64,000 bases of DNA. It comes from Nitrosopumilales archaeon. Lineage in GTDB: Archaea; Thermoproteota; Nitrososphaeria; Nitrososphaerales; Nitrososphaeraceae. Both the position numbers and the translations under genes were made by a program. How positions within the stretch are numbered: the stretch's first letter is position 1; every line of letters begins with the position of its first letter. Below the pieces are notes generated by a model, which saw only the letters and a program-made list of their open reading frames with translations, ran no database searches and was not told the origin of the DNA. The stretch spans positions 1 to 64,000 of the forward strand of contig JBIQJB010000010.1 of assembly GCA_044507735.1 (NCBI GenBank), read 5' to 3'. Positions 56,965-64,000 of this stretch are shown here, piece after piece.

Positions 56965-57630
56965 ATGCAGATCTTCCTAGATACCGCCAATATTGATTCT
57001 ATCAAGAAATACAACGATATGGGACTGGTAGACGGCATAACCACCAACCCGACCCTGCTGTCAAGAGAGAAGGGAAATCCGGCAGAAATCATGCGCGAGA
57101 TTGTAAGGATAGTCAAGGGCCCAGTCAGCCTCGAGGTCGTTGGCACTACAATGGACGAAATGATAGAAGAGGCCCACAGGCTCAAGAAATATGGCCCCAA
57201 CGTGGTTGTCAAGATACCCATGATACCGGAGGGTCTGAGGGCCGTCAAGAAGCTAAAAGAAGAAGGCATTCAGACCAACGTCACTTTGATATTTTCTGCA
57301 AACCAGGCGATCCTTGCTGCAAAGGCAGGGGCAGCCTATGTCAGCCCGTTCATTGGCAGGCTGGACGACGCGGGGCAGGAAGGCATGACAATAATCAGAG
57401 AGATCGTAGAGATCTTCAGGAATTACAAGTTTGATACGAATGTGCTTGTCGCAAGCGTGAGGCATCCTCTGCACGTGATAGAAGCTGGCAAGATAGGCGC
57501 CCAGGTGGTTACACTCCCGCCAGATATCCTTGGCAAGATGATCGCCCACCCGCTGACTGACAAGGGTTTGTCTGCTTTCCTGAGCGACTGGGAAAAGGTC
57601 AAGAAAGAAAACCCCAACCTCACGATCTGA
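56965..57630 (+). CDS. tal: Transaldolase (TalC/FSA family)
   Basis: FLDTAN, GITTNPTL, VVKIP, NVTLIFS, YVSPFIGR.DD. Confidence 0.93.
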   Translation: MQIFLDTANIDSIKKYNDMGLVDGITTNPTLLSREKGNPAEIMREIVRIVKGPVSLEVVGTTMDEMIEEAHRLKKYGPNVVVKIPMIPEGLRAVKKLKEEGIQTNVTLIFSANQAILAAKAGAAYVSPFIGRLDDAGQEGMTIIREIVEIFRNYKFDTNVLVASVRHPLHVIEAGKIGAQVVTLPPDILGKMIAHPLTDKGLSAFLSDWEKVKKENPNLTI

Positions 57631-59203
57631 GAAGCTTGATCACTTTTTTCGGGATGTCCTGCAGCCTGCTGACAGATATCGCCTTTTCATAGTTCAGGTA
57701 TTTCAGATTGTGGCCAATGCCGACAGAGTCGTTGATGTTCCGGCCTACACCTATTGCAACCATGCGAACGCCCATCTTGCGGTAAGATAGCACCATAGCC
57801 CGCACTGCATCAAAGTCTGACGGCTCGCCGTCAGTCAGCGTCACAAGTATGTCTGGCTTGAACGACTGCAGCACTGGCTCGAGCAGGCCGTAGACCTCTG
57901 CTAGCGGAGTGCCGCCGCTTGCTCTTATCTGTGCAAGCCGCCTGGCGCTAATTACAGACCACTTTATGTTAGGCGGCTTGATTACCCAGCATTTCACTTG
58001 CTGTTTCTCAGTGCTGAATGCATACACAGCAAACTTGATTCCAAGGTAGTGCAGCGCTTCACAGAGCGCAATGGTCGCTTGCTTGTATTCCAGCTCGACG
58101 TCTGCGATGCTGCTAGAGTGGTCAAGCAGTATTGCGACTTTTGTCTTGATTGACAGCTTGAAATCAGTTAGGAAAGTCTTTGGCAGCGCTTCGACATAGC
58201 TTTCCACATCAAATTCGTCTCCAGATTCGTCGTGCTTTTCAACCCATCCCGTCTTCCATTCCCTGAAGGCCGCTTTGACCTTTTGTATCAGGTCGACATC
58301 ATAGACCTGGGTCTCGTCTACGTCCATCTTGTCTGGTATGCTCAAGCCAAAATTTTCAAGCGATTCGTATCCCTTGTTCTCGGTCTTTTTGCTCTCCTTT
58401 ACTAGCGTCTCGAACTCGTGCAGCACATCATGACCTTCGTAGACTTCCTTGGTCTTTTCGTCCACGTTCTCCTTCTTGTGCCGCATTTTTACGACCTTTT
58501 CCACTTGCTTGAGCAGGTCTGTCTGGTTGAGCGACGCTCCTACCCTTGTCCTTGGCGCAATGATCGGGATGGAAACCAGCGGGTCAAGCTCCAGCATCTT
58601 GATCAACGTGGGGATGTGCTGCTCCACCCACTCGGTTCCATGGTTGTTATCAATTGCTTCCTTTACAACCTCGTTAGCATAGTCGCTCGCTTTCTTTACT
58701 TTGTCAAACTCGCTTCCGAAAAGCTCGCCTTTCAGGTAGCCTGTCAGGAAGTACTGTGAAAATGCCTCTGCTATCTTGTAGCGGCCGAAAATCGAGTTCA
58801 ATAGCTGCCTGGACATCCACGAGATCCCCTCGTTGAAAAGGAGCTCCCCTTCCATCCCTTCCCATTCGCGCAGCCCAAGAACCTCGATCCTTTTTGTTTC
58901 AACTGTATTGAGCAGAAATCCAAACGCGTGCTCGTAGCTGAGCACCTTTGTGGAATGCTTCATCCTCATCGACTCGTACCAGAGGCCGACTCTCCACTGG
59001 CGGTACTTTTGAAAGTCCGTTCCAGGATAGTAGCTCAACTGCGGCAGTATGATCTGGTTCTTGTCCGGCTTGGCGGTTGGCATTTTGTCCGGCACAAGAA
59101 TTATGATTATCTTGTCATTGCCAGACCAGCGTCGGGCAAGGAAAGTCGCAATGTCAAGTAGGACGTCGTTTCGCATAAAAGGAGTAGCAATCTTGGCGGC
59201 CAT
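57620..59203 (-). CDS. vWA-domain protein (CobT/NorD-like partner of MoxR ATPase)
   Basis: MIDAS motif DHSSS, GGTPL, TDGEP; TAATG overlap with the upstream ATPase. Confidence 0.85.
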   Translation of the reverse strand: MAAKIATPFMRNDVLLDIATFLARRWSGNDKIIIILVPDKMPTAKPDKNQIILPQLSYYPGTDFQKYRQWRVGLWYESMRMKHSTKVLSYEHAFGFLLNTVETKRIEVLGLREWEGMEGELLFNEGISWMSRQLLNSIFGRYKIAEAFSQYFLTGYLKGELFGSEFDKVKKASDYANEVVKEAIDNNHGTEWVEQHIPTLIKMLELDPLVSIPIIAPRTRVGASLNQTDLLKQVEKVVKMRHKKENVDEKTKEVYEGHDVLHEFETLVKESKKTENKGYESLENFGLSIPDKMDVDETQVYDVDLIQKVKAAFREWKTGWVEKHDESGDEFDVESYVEALPKTFLTDFKLSIKTKVAILLDHSSSIADVELEYKQATIALCEALHYLGIKFAVYAFSTEKQQVKCWVIKPPNIKWSVISARRLAQIRASGGTPLAEVYGLLEPVLQSFKPDILVTLTDGEPSDFDAVRAMVLSYRKMGVRMVAIGVGRNINDSVGIGHNLKYLNYEKAISVSRLQDIPKKVIKLLRS

Positions 59204-60039
59204 TACCTGTCGCCAAAGATCGACGTTATCATATCCATCACTTTCTGGTACTCGACTTGACCCCACTGATCGTATGCGTTGGCATACACTACCTCTGCAG
59301 CGCGCCTGCCAGAAAGCCCTGAGTTGAGCATCTTGGCAAACGCTATGGTTTCACGAAGTGATGGACTGTAGTATAGTTCTTCAACCGCGGCTGCTTCGCG
59401 GAGGTTTTTTGCAAGCTGTATGGCATGCTTTACATCTTTGACCTTTGACTCATCTATTGACACGTGTCGCCGTACGATCTCAAGCTCAACGTCTTCTGGC
59501 GGATATTCGAGCCTCATCCTTATTGGGAACCTGCTTAGTAGCTGGGGCGGGAGCTCCTTTGTACCAACGTGGGATAACGGGTTTATGGTCGCAACGACGA
59601 ACCAGTCGGCGGCGGCCTTTACGATCTGGCCCTCTGCCTCCTTTAGCACAAGCTGGCGCCTGTCGTCAAGCGCTTCGTCAAGCCTCAGCAATACATCGGC
59701 CTCCGCAGCGTTGAGCTCGTCGAGATACAATATTGTGCCATTACGCATCGATTTCACAAGCACACCTTCGACAAAGTTGATCTCCCCCTTGTCAAGAGTT
59801 CTGGAACCAACAAGGTGCGATTCCCTTGTACGGAGGGAAAAGTTAACAGAATCCAGCCCTTTTTTCATCTGGGAGGCAAACTTGCGCACCAGAGTGGTCT
59901 TGCCAGTGCCCTTTGGACCAATTATGAGAACAAAGAGCCCCGAGCGATAAGCCTTTTCTAATATGTCAATTGCGTTGTTCCAGTCAAGGTAAACAATCTC
60001 CTCTGGGCTGCTAACTTCTTTGGTTGCCGGCGACTCCAT
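59203..60039 (-). CDS. MoxR-family AAA+ ATPase (CbbQ/NirQ/NorQ type)
   Basis: GPKGTGKT, YLDELN, ATINP, LLSRF, SLRE. Confidence 0.9.
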   Translation of the reverse strand: MESPATKEVSSPEEIVYLDWNNAIDILEKAYRSGLFVLIIGPKGTGKTTLVRKFASQMKKGLDSVNFSLRTRESHLVGSRTLDKGEINFVEGVLVKSMRNGTILYLDELNAAEADVLLRLDEALDDRRQLVLKEAEGQIVKAAADWFVVATINPLSHVGTKELPPQLLSRFPIRMRLEYPPEDVELEIVRRHVSIDESKVKDVKHAIQLAKNLREAAAVEELYYSPSLRETIAFAKMLNSGLSGRRAAEVVYANAYDQWGQVEYQKVMDMITSIFGDR

Positions 60040-60243
60040 CTACTCTTATAGAGCAACCGCACGGTATTTGAGCGTTAAGACGCGGCGTGGTATGTAAGCT
60101 GTCGCTTATCAATAACTGGTAGCATGGTCATTCTTGTATCCATGTACCATGATGCCATGAAAGGAGGATGTGTCAAATCAGACGGCTAGCCAGAAGGATA
60201 TGGCTGGCATTATGGTTGAGGTCAACAGGGCCTGCCGATACTG

Positions 60244-60260
60244 CAAAAATCTTTTATAAT
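60244..60260 (+). promoter_or_regulatory. BRE/TATA-like promoter of the eCIS operon
   Basis: CAAAAATC-TTTTATAAT with the TATA ending about 31 nt before the ATG at 60291. Confidence 0.55.
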
Positions 60261-60290
60261 TCGCTGGCTTCCTAAAGCCGAAATCTCAGA

Positions 60291-60944
60291 ATGTCAAGTT
60301 TTCCAAGGTCGCCACGACTTACAAAGGGCGCATTAATCTCTTATGACCCATTGAGTTTTATCCCACAGGTCGTTATTTTTCAGTACAACCCGGAGGAGAT
60401 GACCCGTACACTTGAGGCGCAGAGAGCTCAGCGTCAAGGAGACCCTGCTGAAGTCCACAGGCTAAAGGGTCCTCCGGTAGAAAAAATACAGCTCAAGGTT
60501 GAGCTGGACGCAGCCGATCAACTGGAAAAGCCGGAGCAAAATTCCACAGCTATTTCAATGGGAATTTACCCGCAACTTTCTGCGCTCGAAATGATGATTT
60601 ATCCAAAGAGCTCTTGGGCGATAGCAAAGACAATATTGGCTAATGCCGGTGCCATCGAAGTTGTTCCTCCCGAAGAGCCATTTACGTTGTTTGTTTGGGG
60701 ACTCAATAGAGTAGTGCCTGTAAGAATCACCAACTTTAGCATTGCAGAAAAGTACTATGATCCGCACTTGAACCCAATTGTGGCAGAGGTATCCCTCAGT
60801 CTTGAAGTGCTGACATATGAAGACTTTAGCTTTTCACATCCAGGGTATTCGATATTCCTTGCCCACCAGATAGTAAAGGAAACGATGGCTGCTGTTGGTT
60901 CTGTGACCAATACTGCTTCACTTGGAGATGTGGGGGTACTGTAG
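60291..60944 (+). CDS. Contractile injection system tube-like/tube-initiator protein (Afp7/Pvc7 N-terminal-like)
   Basis: FQYNPEEMTRTL...P..TLFVWG..RVVPVRIT.FSI.E..YD..LNPI.AEVSLSL, the CIS_tube-type pattern found before LysM/D/gpV genes. Confidence 0.78.
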   Translation: MSSFPRSPRLTKGALISYDPLSFIPQVVIFQYNPEEMTRTLEAQRAQRQGDPAEVHRLKGPPVEKIQLKVELDAADQLEKPEQNSTAISMGIYPQLSALEMMIYPKSSWAIAKTILANAGAIEVVPPEEPFTLFVWGLNRVVPVRITNFSIAEKYYDPHLNPIVAEVSLSLEVLTYEDFSFSHPGYSIFLAHQIVKETMAAVGSVTNTASLGDVGVL

Positions 60945-60946
60945 AA

Positions 60947-61237
60947 GTGTTTGAACCTACCAGCAGATACTTCAGTGTCGAGGACGCAAGCATAGAGACC
61001 AAGGATGGGGGTAAGGTTACGTACAAGAAGAGACGCTTCGTTCCAGACTGGTCTGAGATGGCGCTTCTCCATGAGCTCAGGGTAAACGACGGCGATAGAC
61101 TTGACAGTATCGCTGCCCGCGTGGTTGGAGACCCTGAGCAATTCTGGCGAATCTGCGATGCCAATAATATCATGCACCCACTAGAGCTTACCAACGAACC
61201 AGGCAAATCAATAAGGATAGCGAGACCCTGGGGCTAG
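60947..61237 (+). CDS. LysM-like baseplate protein of a contractile injection system
   Basis: SRY...V.DGDRLD.IA....GDPEQFWRICDAN....P.EL...PG..IRI. Confidence 0.82.
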   Translation: MFEPTSRYFSVEDASIETKDGGKVTYKKRRFVPDWSEMALLHELRVNDGDRLDSIAARVVGDPEQFWRICDANNIMHPLELTNEPGKSIRIARPWG

Positions 61238-61242
61238 TCATT

Positions 61243-62391
61243 TTGACAGGAATCTTTGCCGTCTTGATGATCGGGCCGACCATACCGCTGCCAGTCCCTG
61301 CAACGCTTGCTGACGCCGTTGAATCGATAGAGGTGAAGATCACGGATGAGGGCCGCGATGGCTTCCAGATCGTTTTCACAGTAGGCAGGGCCGGCGCGCA
61401 GAGCCCTACCGGGAACCCTATTGACTACACGCTCATGAACAATCCCCTGCTTAACACATTTAACAGAGTCATTGTGATGCTGGTCTTTGGCCTCTCCCCT
61501 ACTGTGCTAATTGATGGCATAATCACCAACAGGCAGTTCAGTCCATCCTCTCAACCAGGTCAGTCCAAGCTTACAATAACTGGCGAGGATGTGAGCATAA
61601 TGATGGACAGAGCAGAATCGTCCACCACTCATCCAAACCAGCCGGACATTGCAATAGTTGCCAAGATAATAGCTTCGTATTCTCAGTACGGCCTCGTGCC
61701 GACAGTGATCCCGCCCGCTTCGATGGACGTACCAATAATGGTCAACAGGATCCCATCGCAGCAGGCAACGGATCTACAGTACATCAAGTCCCTTGCAGAG
61801 GCGTACGACTATGTGTTCTATGTCGAGCCCACTGCTGTCCCGGGAGTCAACACCGCATACTGGGGGCCAAAGCAGTATACAGGCGTGCCCCAGAAGGCGC
61901 TCACAGTCAATATGGGATCAGACACAAATGTAAAGAGCATAAACTTTCAATACAATTCGCTTGATTCGACCATCGTGACGGGAAGCATACAGGATCCTCT
62001 GCTCAACGCAAAGATACCAGTGGTAACTGCAGGCAGCCTGCGGCCCCCGTTATCTGCTATACCAGACTGGCTGGCAAACCTTGCCAACGCCAAGAAAAAG
62101 CAGTATAGAGCAGGAGGGGGAGTCAACTTTGTCCAAGCATACGGTGAAGCTCAGTCAGAGACTGACAAGTCCACCGACGCAGTCACCGTCACAGGTGAGC
62201 TTGACGGAGCGCGTTACGGAAATGTGCTTAGGGCAAGGCGGCTTGTGGGCTTGCGCGGCGTTGGATACATGCATGATGGATTCTATTATGTCAAAAACGT
62301 CACCCACAAGATAAAGAAGGGCGAGTACAGCCAATCGTTTACGCTTGTGCGCGAGGGCCTTGGGTCTACGACTCCGGTGGTGATGCCTTGA
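61243..62391 (+). CDS. Phage late-control-D / baseplate hub protein (Afp8/VgrG N-terminal-like)
   Basis: DGFQI.F, LIDGIIT, LTITGEDVS.MMD, TDL.YI..LA...YVFY, GELDG.RYG..L....VG.RG.G...DG.YYV..VTH. Confidence 0.8.
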   Translation: MTGIFAVLMIGPTIPLPVPATLADAVESIEVKITDEGRDGFQIVFTVGRAGAQSPTGNPIDYTLMNNPLLNTFNRVIVMLVFGLSPTVLIDGIITNRQFSPSSQPGQSKLTITGEDVSIMMDRAESSTTHPNQPDIAIVAKIIASYSQYGLVPTVIPPASMDVPIMVNRIPSQQATDLQYIKSLAEAYDYVFYVEPTAVPGVNTAYWGPKQYTGVPQKALTVNMGSDTNVKSINFQYNSLDSTIVTGSIQDPLLNAKIPVVTAGSLRPPLSAIPDWLANLANAKKKQYRAGGGVNFVQAYGEAQSETDKSTDAVTVTGELDGARYGNVLRARRLVGLRGVGYMHDGFYYVKNVTHKIKKGEYSQSFTLVREGLGSTTPVVMP

Positions 62392-62888
62392 GCACCCAGC
62401 AGAGCACGCAGCGCTTTTACGGCAAGTACAGGGGCAAGGTGACAGATAACCGCGACCCACTCATGCAGGGCAGAATCCGCGCCAAGGTGCCGTCAGTGTT
62501 CGGCGACGAAGAGACTGGCTGGGCGCTTCCCTGTGCCCCCTACGCGGGCTCTGGAGTGGGATTCTTTTTCGTCCCGCCAGTTGATGCCAACGTCTGGATC
62601 GAATTCGAGGGTGGCAACCCAGACTACCCGATATGGACTGGCGGATTCTGGGGGACAGGTGAGGCTCCTGTGATGCCGGCACTAGCAGAGACAAAGATGA
62701 TCAAGACAGACACTGCAACACTCAAGCTGGACGACTTGCCCGGCGTGGGAGGCATAACCATAGAGACTACGTCTGGATTAAAGATCGTCATGAACGTGAC
62801 GGGCATAGAGCTGAGCAATGGCGCGGCAAGCATCAAGCTTACGCCTGCAAGCGTGTCTGTAAACAACGGTGCGCTGGAAGTAATCTAG
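62388..62888 (+). CDS. Baseplate assembly protein V / gp5 OB-fold spike
   Basis: FYGKYRG.V.DN.DP...GRI...VP.V......WA.PC.PYAG...G.F..P.....VWIEFEGG.PDYPIW.G.FW followed by short beta-strand repeats. Confidence 0.88.
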   Translation: MSTQQSTQRFYGKYRGKVTDNRDPLMQGRIRAKVPSVFGDEETGWALPCAPYAGSGVGFFFVPPVDANVWIEFEGGNPDYPIWTGGFWGTGEAPVMPALAETKMIKTDTATLKLDDLPGVGGITIETTSGLKIVMNVTGIELSNGAASIKLTPASVSVNNGALEVI

Positions 62889-62976
62889 ACGCTGTATTTC
62901 CCTTAAATGCCTCTAATATTTTGGAGGTGAAAGAGAATAATACTTTTCTAGTCGGGTTTAGCATATTCTGCAGTTA

Positions 62977-64000
62977 ATGTCATTGGCAATGCACCAAACC
63001 AGCATAGCAAGAGACATCAATACCAAGTCGTACATGCCTGCAGGACTTTCTGTTGATACTCGTCACACGGGTAGCTTGAATAAGGCTTCTGCAAGTTCTA
63101 CTGCTTACTCACAACAAGCTACTTACATTCAGCAGGAGGCAGAACAGATCATGCTGCCCCCAGTTGTTGGATATGACTTTTCAAAGATCGGCATCCAGCC
63201 AAGGTTGAAGGTAAGTCATCCTTCAGATCCATCCGAAGAAGAGGCAGAGAGAGTCGCAGAACAAGTGATGAGTACGCCTGCCCCTAGTATCGATTCTCAT
63301 TCCCTTGCGCCGAACGGGGAAAGGCTCGATAGGAAATGTGCAGCATGCGAGACGATGAAAGAGAAGGAAGAGAAAGAGGTAAACATAAGCAGAAAATCTT
63401 CGTCAGGATTTGACTTAGAGAATAATCACGAACTGGCAAGTGAAATAGGCGATATTCGTTCAAGCAGTGGCTCTCTGCTTGATGCAAGTACCAAAGAATT
63501 CATGGAATCAAGGTTTGGTTATGATTTTAGTTCTGTCAGAGTACATACTGATGGAACAGCCGCTCAGTCGGCCAACAGAGTTAACGCGCTAGCATACACA
63601 ATTGGAAATAATATAGTGTTTGGCGAGGGCATGTACCAGCCAGATACAACGCAGGGAAGAAGGTTGCTGGCGCATGAGTTGACGCATGTAGTGCAACAGA
63701 ATGGAAATAAAATTAATGCCAAGCATTCTTCTGATAATATAGACATACGAGTCAACGATTATTCTAATAATACCACGGTACAGCGCTTCGGTGATCCTGC
63801 CCAGATTCCATCAGGCATGTCGTGTCCCGTTGCTGTCGATACTCCTTTGGGAGTTGTAGAAAATCTGCTATTTAGTGTCGGAACATCTGCTCTCTCTACA
63901 GATCAACAAACACAGATCGAAAGCTTCGTAAATAATTGGCATGCCCTTGGTGGAAATTTTGACGTAAGAGTAGACGGATACGCGAGCGTTGATGGGCCGC
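62977..64000 (+). CDS. DUF4157 (eCIS core) domain protein with the start of an OmpA-like domain (runs off window; not in ORF track)
   Basis: Frame is open from ATG 62977 to the end: IQPRLKVSHPSDPSEEEAERVAEQVM, RKCAACE, FMESRFGYDFSSVRVHTD...ALAYTIGNNIVFG...LLAHELTHVVQQ, VQR, then LLFSVGTSALS...VRVDGYASVDG. Confidence 0.88.
   Translation, partial: MSLAMHQTSIARDINTKSYMPAGLSVDTRHTGSLNKASASSTAYSQQATYIQQEAEQIMLPPVVGYDFSKIGIQPRLKVSHPSDPSEEEAERVAEQVMSTPAPSIDSHSLAPNGERLDRKCAACETMKEKEEKEVNISRKSSSGFDLENNHELASEIGDIRSSSGSLLDASTKEFMESRFGYDFSSVRVHTDGTAAQSANRVNALAYTIGNNIVFGEGMYQPDTTQGRRLLAHELTHVVQQNGNKINAKHSSDNIDIRVNDYSNNTTVQRFGDPAQIPSGMSCPVAVDTPLGVVENLLFSVGTSALSTDQQTQIESFVNNWHALGGNFDVRVDGYASVDGP

Follow-up and report, generated by a model that had tools for sequence, protein, structure and literature searches.

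Can an ammonia-oxidizing archaeon build a machine that drives proteins into other cells? The question is raised by the right-hand end of a 64,000-nt stretch of DNA (the window), positions 1 to 64,000 of contig C42 (69,305 nt in total; JBIQJB010000010.1) of a Nitrososphaeraceae genome (GCA_044507735.1), where four tightly coupled genes resemble the spike end of a contractile injection system (CIS). A sequence-only reading of the window had proposed that a thaumarchaeote may here encode a protein-injection nanomachine of the extracellular kind (eCIS), and this proposal is now supported by a complete gene set, archaeal flanks, and archaeal amoA. We give a probability of about 0.82 to the locus being a genuine, complete, and probably functional CIS of a Nitrososphaera-type ammonia-oxidizing archaeon. 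Throughout, genomes are labeled G### (G000 is the source genome), loci L###, and runs X#, and the coordinates of the features are collected in Table 1.

A Split Afp7 and Split Afp8 Cassette

The four open reading frames (ORFs) lie at the positions, and with the spacings, that the sequence-only reading had given: when the longest ORFs (GTG/TTG starts) are considered, the first three are separated by 2 and 5 nt and the last two overlap by 4 nt. These starts are supported because homologues align from residues 1-5. The identities that had been proposed (a CIS-tube-like protein, a LysM protein, a late-control-D hub, and a gpV/gp5 spike, in the order of Afp7 and Afp8) hold up in Pfam, profile, and Foldseek comparisons. 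The first protein, of 217 aa, matches CIS_tube (PF19266) at E 5.9e-5, which falls under the Pfam cut-off, and the same family is matched by 36 of its 37 aligned homologues, the best at E 2.1e-10. The 96-aa protein has no match in a Pfam search of its own sequence; 5 of 37 homologues match Phage_tail_X, and the best match of its profile is the LysM part of the Anabaena CIS protein All3321 (7b5h_AK residues 164-221, E 0.0035). Its AlphaFold2 (AF2) model, with a predicted local distance difference test (pLDDT) score of 86.9, contains a LysM fold (beta-alpha-alpha-beta) at residues 40-92 that can be overlaid on LysM domains, and on the corresponding portions of CIS baseplate initiators, with a root-mean-square deviation of 1.2-1.8 Å over 53-58 columns. 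The Foldseek E-values for this model are weak, 0.01-0.03, the CIS matches being 7b5h_AK, 9gtp_M, and 7aeb_M, and the predicted fold is the level at which we assign the protein to LysM.

The 382-aa protein likewise has no match in a Pfam search. [quoted passage not shown] A profile of the protein also finds a VgrG in the PDB (9rce_F, E 5.4e-5). The fourth protein, of 166 aa, is the simplest case, with a match to Phage_base_V (PF04717) at E 1.1e-26. Taken one by one, these identities therefore make the cassette a split Afp7 followed by a split Afp8. PHROGs and NCBIfam returned no or weak matches for the 217- and 382-aa proteins and for the 108-, 90-, and 867-aa and tape-measure-like proteins encoded further along.

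A TATA-like box precedes the first cassette gene, which we call tubeL, and a second TATA-like sequence, TTTTAAGA, lies ~30-36 nt upstream of the PAAR gene on contig C53. Boxes at 30-39 nt from the tubeL and PAAR starts suggest candidate archaeal promoters, and the candidate before tubeL would give a transcript with a short leader or none.

The Remaining Components

The cassette is one end of an island that comprises C42:60081-69305 and C53:56-~17200 and measures 26,369 nt as assembled (~26.4 kb). On the plus strand, the two halves of the tube initiator, the hub, and the spike are followed by a DUF4157 cargo candidate and a 108-aa gene. Convergent with these, the minus strand carries genes for a ParB-like protein, PAAR, gp25, two Baseplate_J wedges, an 867-aa protein, a DUF6519 protein, the sheath, the gp19 tube, a T4_baseplate/DUF6760 protein, a tape-measure-like protein, a DUF4255 cap, an AAA+ ATPase, and a 90-aa protein. 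Roles were assigned by analogy with solved CISs. The eight core components that define the eCIS superfamily, in the portion of Chen et al. (2019) available to us, are all present with intact frames: sheath, gp19 tube, Afp7, Afp8, gp25, Baseplate_J, ATPase, and DUF4255. The genes for the sheath, gp19 tube, gp25, Baseplate_J, PAAR, DUF4255, and Afp15-like ATPase all lie on the C42 end and C53, so the cassette is not the relic that the sequence-only reading had allowed for. Against the PDB, the DUF4255 protein has no sequence match at E 0.001. The PAAR gene keeps its place beside gp25 in 75 of 80 loci (the best 80 of at least 565 hub relatives). DUF6519 corresponds to a fibre baseplate-attachment domain, eBAP5, in the part of PMC12923769 consulted, and the island protein presumably has a fibre role.

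Three traits bear on the subtype. According to excerpts of Chen et al. (2019), afp8 is split into gp27 and gp5 ORFs in the IIa, IIb, and IIc subtypes, two afp11 genes occur in IIa and IIc, PAAR (afp10) is missing in IIb alone, and archaeal loci are found in IIa and IIc. The island has the split afp8, two afp11 genes, and PAAR (with scores just below cut-offs), and these traits point, within eCIS lineage II, to either IIa or IIc.

Contig C53 continues C42. The final 55 nt of C42 recur exactly as the opening 55 nt of C53, a fit that is seen with no other contig end, and contigs from four runs of four other studies exit the C42 end with 19-30 letters identical to C53:88-117. The break falls inside a 39-nt tandem repeat encoding KQPAAHTKPELEE (C42:69190-69305, C53:1-87), at which contigs of other runs likewise end or branch, and one open frame, the tape-measure-like gene, crosses the join. 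In G077, a one-contig genome, and in G069, the whole locus is contiguous and in the same order, with the ParB-like protein at the same locus end. Where the island ends on the right, a very AT-rich stretch with many short ATAATATGATA-like repeats (C53:16860-17030, L006) lies upstream of the ParB-like gene and might serve the product of that gene as a regulatory or partition-type site.

Table 1. Features of the island and its setting (coordinates without a prefix are those of the window, which equal those of C42)
Feature	Location	Strand	Basis or remark
Left island border and intergenic region upstream of the first gene	60081-60290	none	homology stop and empty site
TATA-like box (TTTATAA behind an A-rich stretch)	60252-60259	+	32-39 nt upstream of ATG, read from sequence
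CIS-tube-like protein, 217 aa; N-terminal half of split Afp7/Cis7 (tube initiator)	60291-60944	+	PF19266
LysM/gpX-like protein, 96 aa; C-terminal half of split Afp7/Cis7	60947-61237	+	LysM fold
gp27/gpD-type baseplate hub, 382 aa; N-terminal half of split Afp8/Cis8	61243-62391	+	AF2 and Foldseek
gpV/gp5 OB-fold spike, 166 aa; C-terminal half of split Afp8/Cis8	62388-62888	+	Phage_base_V
DUF4157 (eCIS_core)-OmpA-like-metzincin-type protein, 597 aa, ATG start	C42:62977-64770 (341 aa in window)	+	eCIS_core
108-aa gene	C42:64767-65093	+	
90-aa gene	C42, downstream block	-	converges with the strand of the spike cassette
Afp15-like AAA+ ATPase	C42:65478-67583	-	AAA E 2.5e-26, winged-helix domain
Afp16 cap, DUF4255/Pvc16_N	C42:67415-68617	-	PF14065 E 1.4e-40, TIG domain
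Phage_T4_gp19 tube (Afp1/5)	C53:1088-1627	-	PF06841 E 1.7e-41
Sheath (Afp2/3/4)	C53:1602-3281	-	Phage_sheath_1 and Phage_sheath_1C above cut-offs
Baseplate_J (Afp11), 934 aa	C53:9695-12499	-	E 1.5e-12
Baseplate_J (Afp11), 905 aa	C53:12484-15201	-	E 2.6e-8
gp25 (Afp9)	C53:15205-15564	-	GPW_gp25 E 1.4e-14
PAAR (afp10)	C53:15566-15898	-	PAAR_motif E 1.8e-5, DUF4280 E 5.5e-5, both just below cut-offs
DUF6519 fibre-type protein, 1137 aa	C53	-	
T4_baseplate/DUF6760 protein, 276 aa	C53	-	
867-aa protein	C53	-	no family assigned
ParB-like gene	C53, right end of island	-	
eCIS_core gene, 532 aa	G000:C33:53075-54673 (L120 4076-5674)		weak PG_binding_1 match below cut-off
eCIS_core gene, 508 aa	G000:C33:55372-56898 (L120 6373-7899)		
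MoxR-type AAA ATPase (278 aa) and VWA-domain protein (548 aa)	57620-60039	-	adjoin the island
5S rRNA	C42:51567-51686		
Family-B polymerase	C42:9662-12376		
HpaB-family (hcd-type) protein	C42:27282-28817		

An Archaeal Chromosome on Both Sides

The source assembly has 55 contigs and 2.33 Mb, with 97% completeness and 0.48% contamination. Archaeal amoA is represented by two full-length matches, C17:115287-115835 and also C9:29699-30247 (399 / 383 bits); the pair may be a real duplication or may come from two strains in the bin. The hcd, 5S rRNA, and PolB genes that had been placed on the contig of the cassette are all located on C42, which also encodes a threonyl-tRNA synthetase with an archaea-specific editing domain, RLI, and HerA/Rad50. 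The flanks of the island are ordinary chromosome of the genus. Window DNA from 50000 to 64000 matches 59 of the 60 other genus genomes, and among the rows listed, the same-genus matches stop at ~60076-60090 or slightly earlier, only G023 extending past this point. The unpublished genomes G068, G041, G009, G022, and G071 enter solely as rows in the flank-match and hub-search counts. The site is empty in G058, where the counterparts of C42:..60076 and C53:17200.. stand 857 nt apart on contig C80 with a flank that is 91% identical, and in G057, the same two flanks are ~4 kb apart. The homology stop and the empty site of G058 therefore set the two borders of the island. Just outside the left border, the MoxR-type ATPase belongs to the backbone and is distinct from the CIS ATPase; together with its VWA partner, it is 91-96% identical in G058 and G057, the two nearest relatives examined.

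A chimeric junction, which the sequence-only reading had considered for 60.04-60.29 kb, is not what we find, as the interval is bridged by contigs of three other studies; in the four runs compared in detail, the border at 60.08 kb is crossed by contigs of X6 (11,905 nt), X10 (9,319 nt), and X7 (1,074 nt). The stretch from 59000 to 63000 is present in 20 runs from eight studies, one of them a possible source. In run X2, the left border (L003 3057-3168, equal to C42:60056-60167) appears in two alternative 112-nt contigs at depths of 5.3 and 6.9, which suggests two coexisting strains differing at the border. The composition of the island is near that of its host, with a guanine-plus-cytosine (GC) content of 51.2% against 48.6% for the rest and a tetranucleotide distance that ranks sixth of 88 genome chunks. 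No direct or inverted repeat of at least 10 nt common to both borders was found, and there is no tRNA at the borders, the nearest being tRNA-Gly(CCC) at C53:18603.

Distribution and Descent

The hub profile has a match in 7 of 72 genus genomes, G000 included, and in 4 of 401 genomes of the class (G000, G077, a member of another genus of the family, and a divergent locus in another family). Among 16 representatives of the other families of the order, none matched. The genus and class samples include incomplete genomes, so absence here means not found among those searched. The position of the island also varies. G058, whose site is empty, has a locus of the same type on another contig, with CIS proteins 50-86% identical to those of G000 as against 94-96% for the flanking proteins, and the flank of the G017 locus matches other G000 contigs; the island therefore sits at different sites in different genomes.

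Two further observations concern related genomes. G044 has a lone, truncated sheath ORF (324 aa, L030 13638-14612, G044:C1) ~12 kb from homologues of the MoxR-VWA pair; it aligns with the C-terminal part of the sheath of G000 at ~60% identity. No hub, tube, or other CIS gene was detected in the 20 kb examined around it, nor does the hub profile find anything in G044; the ORF is possibly the relic of an island lost from near the same site. In another family of the same order, L119 (G209:C56, 10.4 kb) is a divergent CIS locus with 27-60% identity and the collinear order typical of bacteria. It has a TGA within the hub match; the contig holds CIS genes only, and its assignment to that archaeal genome is tentative.

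Public genomes contain at least 565 confirmed stretches related to the hub. The best 80 of these, at 46-55% identity, come mostly from Chloroflexota, Cyanobacteriota, Acidobacteriota, Pseudomonadota, and Actinomycetota, and also from Nitrospira, Methanoperedens, Methanogaster, and a Nanoarchaeia bin. The tubeL-LysM-hub-spike cassette is present in 78-80 of these 80 loci. In the bacterial and other archaeal loci, a single strand carries the genes in a collinear order: sheath and tube, ..., DUF4255 and ATPase, in many cases DUF4157, and after these tubeL-LysM-hub-spike-PAAR-gp25-J-J-...-DUF6519. The Nitrososphaeraceae copies have the spike cassette in inverse orientation, and their baseplate block is upstream of the sheath gene. 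In a quick maximum-likelihood tree of this single protein (85 hubs), six Nitrososphaeraceae sequences form one clade with a Shimodaira-Hasegawa-like approximate likelihood ratio test (SH-aLRT) value of 99, separate from the 79 remaining hubs. Those of Methanoperedens and Methanogaster fall among Chloroflexota, which supply 28 of the 85 rows. The tree omits three loci: that of G017, whose hub is split between two contigs, that of G058, with an incomplete hub, and the divergent one of G209; G069 is represented by locus L036. Within the family, the hubs are 52-76% identical to one another. Between G000 and G023, the nonsynonymous divergence (dN) is 0.10-0.20 and synonymous sites (dS) are saturated, so no dN/dS ratio is given; the low dN argues for purifying selection within the archaeal lineage. 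By gene content and hub relationships, the locus belongs to a widespread, horizontally mobile, mostly bacterial family of lineage II (IIa/IIc-like).

DUF4157 Proteins as Candidate Cargo

The DUF4157 protein that the sequence-only reading had placed after the spike gene is confirmed by an eCIS_core/DUF4157 match at E 1.4e-35. This 597-aa protein also has an OmpA match (E 2.7e-9) and reprolysin-like matches below cut-off, and its C-terminal HExxHxxGxxH motif is invariant in 32 aligned sequences. The combination of DUF4157, OmpA, and metalloprotease recurs in 54 other proteins at 46-59% identity. Compared with the DUF4157 proteins of G023, G017, G077, and G069, only residues ~64-245 match; the C-terminal part is not shared, a pattern that would fit exchangeable toxin ends. 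G000 has three eCIS_core proteins, one in the island and two on C33 among ordinary genes, and the latter two are candidate orphan cargo. Between the two C33 genes is a 149-aa ORF, and their neighbors encode Band 7 and DHBP synthase proteins.

A cargo role for these proteins would follow by analogy. DUF4157 proteins are associated with CISs in the available text of Geller et al. (2021), and in a haloarchaeon, their secretion depends on the T6SS, as stated in the sections seen of Zachs et al. (2024, PMC11566945). That the 108-aa protein downstream is an immunity or chaperone partner is a guess from its position; a complex prediction with residues 400-597 of the 597-aa protein, its metalloprotease part, speaks neither for nor against this (score 0.00). 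The archaeon itself has no peptidoglycan, and since the candidate cargo has peptidoglycan-binding modules, we infer a bacterial target.

Proposed Working and Mode of Action

In the working that we propose, hub and spike trimers capped by PAAR would nucleate a baseplate of gp25 and J-type wedges, and the split Afp7 would initiate the gp19 tube around the tape measure. The sheath would polymerize in the extended state and be capped by the DUF4255 protein, the ATPase perhaps helping in assembly or loading. The three DUF4157 proteins would be cargo. A trigger would then cause the sheath to contract, driving tube, spike, and cargo into the target. Because the peptidoglycan-binding modules of the cargo would be useless to the archaeon itself, we lean toward a particle directed at cells other than the producer, probably bacterial ones. 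Given a functional CIS, release from the cell is the mode we would choose, at a little under even odds; anchoring to the membrane in the manner of a T6SS is a minority possibility, and cytoplasmic action comes last of the three. The most specific form of the proposal is that Nitrososphaeraceae use a vertically maintained CIS lineage of their own against peptidoglycan-walled bacteria, with the DUF4157-OmpA/peptidoglycan-binding-metzincin protein as cargo, and this we regard as rather unlikely.

Several points weigh against a functional CIS that acts on other cells. Few genomes carry the locus (7 of 72 in the genus, 4 of 401 in the class), which is therefore dispensable. No lysis or release gene was recognized in the island. 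The sheath is closest to those of two non-extracellular systems, those of Streptomyces (8bky) and haloarchaea (9ezm). The architecture of the 597-aa protein is shared by many further proteins from metagenomes, of which two are labeled bacterial by their sources, and the peptidoglycan-binding modules may have been inherited with the locus rather than adapted to targets of the archaeon. Finally, the 39-nt repeat at the contig join makes the assembled length of the tape-measure-like gene, and perhaps any tail length read from it, provisional.

The likeliest alternative is an archaeal T6SS, assembled in the cytoplasm, held at the cell membrane by its baseplate, and discharged across the S-layer into a neighbor in contact with the cell. 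Such a membrane-anchored mode is shown for Halogeometricum borinquense in the text available of Zachs et al. (2024, PMC11566945). The G000 sheath matches the haloarchaeal Cis2 (9ezm) at E 3.4e-66, far more strongly than the released Afp (antifeeding prophage), PVC, and AlgoCIS sheaths, which lie at E 3.7e-47 to 1.5e-36. Traits of the clade IIa type are common to the two systems in that same partial text (split Cis8, two Cis11, two structural blocks, and DUF4157 toxins with partner genes), and a T6SS would account for use by an archaeon without a known lysis cassette. We nonetheless hold it to be unlikely: a hydropathy scan of the island genes found no multi-pass membrane protein, although an anchor could be encoded elsewhere; the island has a DUF6519 fibre-type protein; and its hub clade stands apart from all others sampled, in a sample without a haloarchaeal sequence.

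A second alternative, which we think improbable, is that the system stays in the cytoplasm and is turned on the cell that makes it, for stress-induced death or some part in the life cycle. Streptomyces coelicolor has a CIS of this sort, and one has been proposed for Chloroflexota. This alternative draws on the best sheath matches of all, those to the Streptomyces CIS (8bky 1.9e-69, 8bl4 2.5e-67), and on the many Chloroflexota among the nearest hub relatives. A CIS lineage of Chloroflexota and Deinococcota, which may or may not be of the same subtype as the Nitrososphaeraceae island, is reported as intracellular in the part of PMC12998442 consulted. The DUF6519 fibre-type protein and PAAR do not fit this picture, nor does a cargo with an OmpA-like peptidoglycan-binding domain that would have no ligand inside an archaeon, and the split Afp8 and doubled Afp11 are unlike Streptomyces subtype IId as given in the excerpts of Chen et al. 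(2019).

The island could also be a recent arrival that lies silent in the archaeon, its genes unexpressed. Its patchy distribution, its different chromosomal sites in relatives (G058, G017), and the decay indicated by the lone sheath ORF of G044 would be expected of such a passenger. In G000, however, all island genes are intact and composition is near that of the host; the Nitrososphaeraceae copies form an old, diverged clade with a conserved order of their own; dN is low against saturated dS; and TATA-like boxes stand at the operon starts. We consider this explanation quite improbable.

We reject the view that the island is the tail module of an integrated head-tail provirus. In its favor, every structural gene has contractile-tail homology, and a ParB-like gene lies at one island end. 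Capsid, portal, and terminase genes beside the cassette, which the sequence-only reading had named as marks of a provirus, were looked for, and none was found: Terminase_6N, Phage_capsid (HK97-type), and Phage_portal, the three head families searched, have 0 matches genome-wide, with control genomes positive. The borders fixed by the empty site leave no room for head genes in an island whose content is fully listed; DUF4255, the Afp15-type ATPase, and DUF4157 are CIS markers; and no integrase was noticed, though no search was aimed at integrases. A provirus is very improbable. Least probable of all, with a negligible chance, are bacterial CIS genes brought into the archaeal bin by chimeric assembly or misbinning, which the mostly bacterial relatives (at 46-55% protein identity, best 80 of at least 565) and the 55-contig assembly might suggest and which we reject because contigs of three other studies bridge the junction with the conserved archaeal chromosome, both flanks are adjacent in G058, the one-contig genus genome G077 has the same locus, and the Nitrososphaeraceae hubs are monophyletic.

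Prior Knowledge and Significance

Ammonia-oxidizing archaea govern the first step of nitrification in soils. The interactions of ammonia oxidizers are usually framed as competition for substrate rather than as weaponry, and nitrifiers are commonly modeled as non-antagonistic autotrophs. A full gene set for an injection machine, accompanied by three proteins that are candidates for its cargo, offers a testable route to antagonism or programmed death in these archaea. It also places a second archaeal lineage, with another envelope and ecology, beside the single archaeal CIS studied experimentally, that of haloarchaea. If the antibacterial reading is true, nitrifier communities would contain a weapon that acts across domains, with bacterial competitors or partners among its conceivable targets. 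These expectations are tempered by the facts that the family is widespread and horizontally mobile, that about a tenth of the genus genomes searched have the locus, and that the loci are already in public genomes.

In the portions available to us, Geller et al. (2021) report eCISs in 19 archaea of one archaeal phylum, and a 2025 metagenome survey likewise has eCISs in one archaeal phylum. The eCIS and haloarchaeal T6SS papers whose main texts were searched contain neither "Nitroso" nor "Thaum" in those texts; a database entry may exist. A full-text literature search combining contractile injection or tail sheath with Thaumarchaeota, Nitrososphaera, or ammonia-oxidizing archaea returned one relevant item, a 2022 survey of sheath structures in which, as far as the text was accessible, a 521-aa sheath of Ca. 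Nitrososphaera evergladensis is a table row. The statement in the sequence-only reading that no characterized eCIS is known in this lineage thus stands insofar as we found no description, and needs amending insofar as the evergladensis sheath was already in that survey. What the island adds is a complete CIS of a known kind for a group in which we found none described, not a new mechanism.

Comparison with Known Systems

The H. borinquense T6SS (clade IIa; Zachs et al. 2024, PMC11566945) resembles the Nitrososphaeraceae system in having an archaeal host with an S-layer and a highly similar sheath. In the text that we could consult, the names Cis8a and Cis11a imply split or doubled genes, the structural genes lie in two blocks, and the DUF4157 toxins have small downstream partner genes. 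The two differ in phylum and habitat, and the two blocks are convergent in the Nitrososphaeraceae island. According to the same partial text, the haloarchaeal system is without cis14, whereas the island has a tape-measure-like gene, and its mode goes with a protein of six transmembrane segments beside the cluster, a kind of multi-pass protein that the hydropathy scan did not find in the island.

The cytoplasmic CISs of S. coelicolor and Streptomyces venezuelae (IId) provide the best sheath match, share the hub fold (9gtr_q, 3.2e-20), and likewise have DUF4255 and the ATPase. Their Cis8 is fused, subtype IId having a single afp8 ORF and a single afp11 in the excerpts of Chen et al. (2019), whereas both are split or doubled in the island, which differs further by its DUF6519 fibre-type protein. 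The thylakoid-anchored CIS of Anabaena (7b5h) and AlgoCIS (7aef) give the best structural matches of the hub, the matches of the LysM part, and the best tube matches (E 5.7e-14 and 5.2e-13). Their Cis7 (~230 aa) and Cis8 (~585 aa) are single proteins, each encoded by two genes in the island, and their sheaths match at ~1e-36.

With Afp, PVC, and the metamorphosis-associated contractile structures (MAC), all of lineage I, the island has in common the eight core components, the order of Afp7 and Afp8, and a hub fold that matches PVC (9qgm, 6j0m) and Afp (6rbk). In those systems Afp8 is a fused protein, afp11 is single, the sheath has three paralogues, and the targets are insects or eukaryotes; the island has one sheath gene, a split Afp7 and Afp8, two afp11 genes, and another order of modules. 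Loci of the same type, in which all genes are common at ~30-79% identity, occur in Chloroflexota, Cyanobacteriota, Acidobacteriota, Variovorax, Nitrospira, Methanoperedens, Methanogaster, and others. These bacterial and other archaeal loci are collinear on one strand, whereas the Nitrososphaeraceae copies have an inverted spike cassette and a hub clade of their own.

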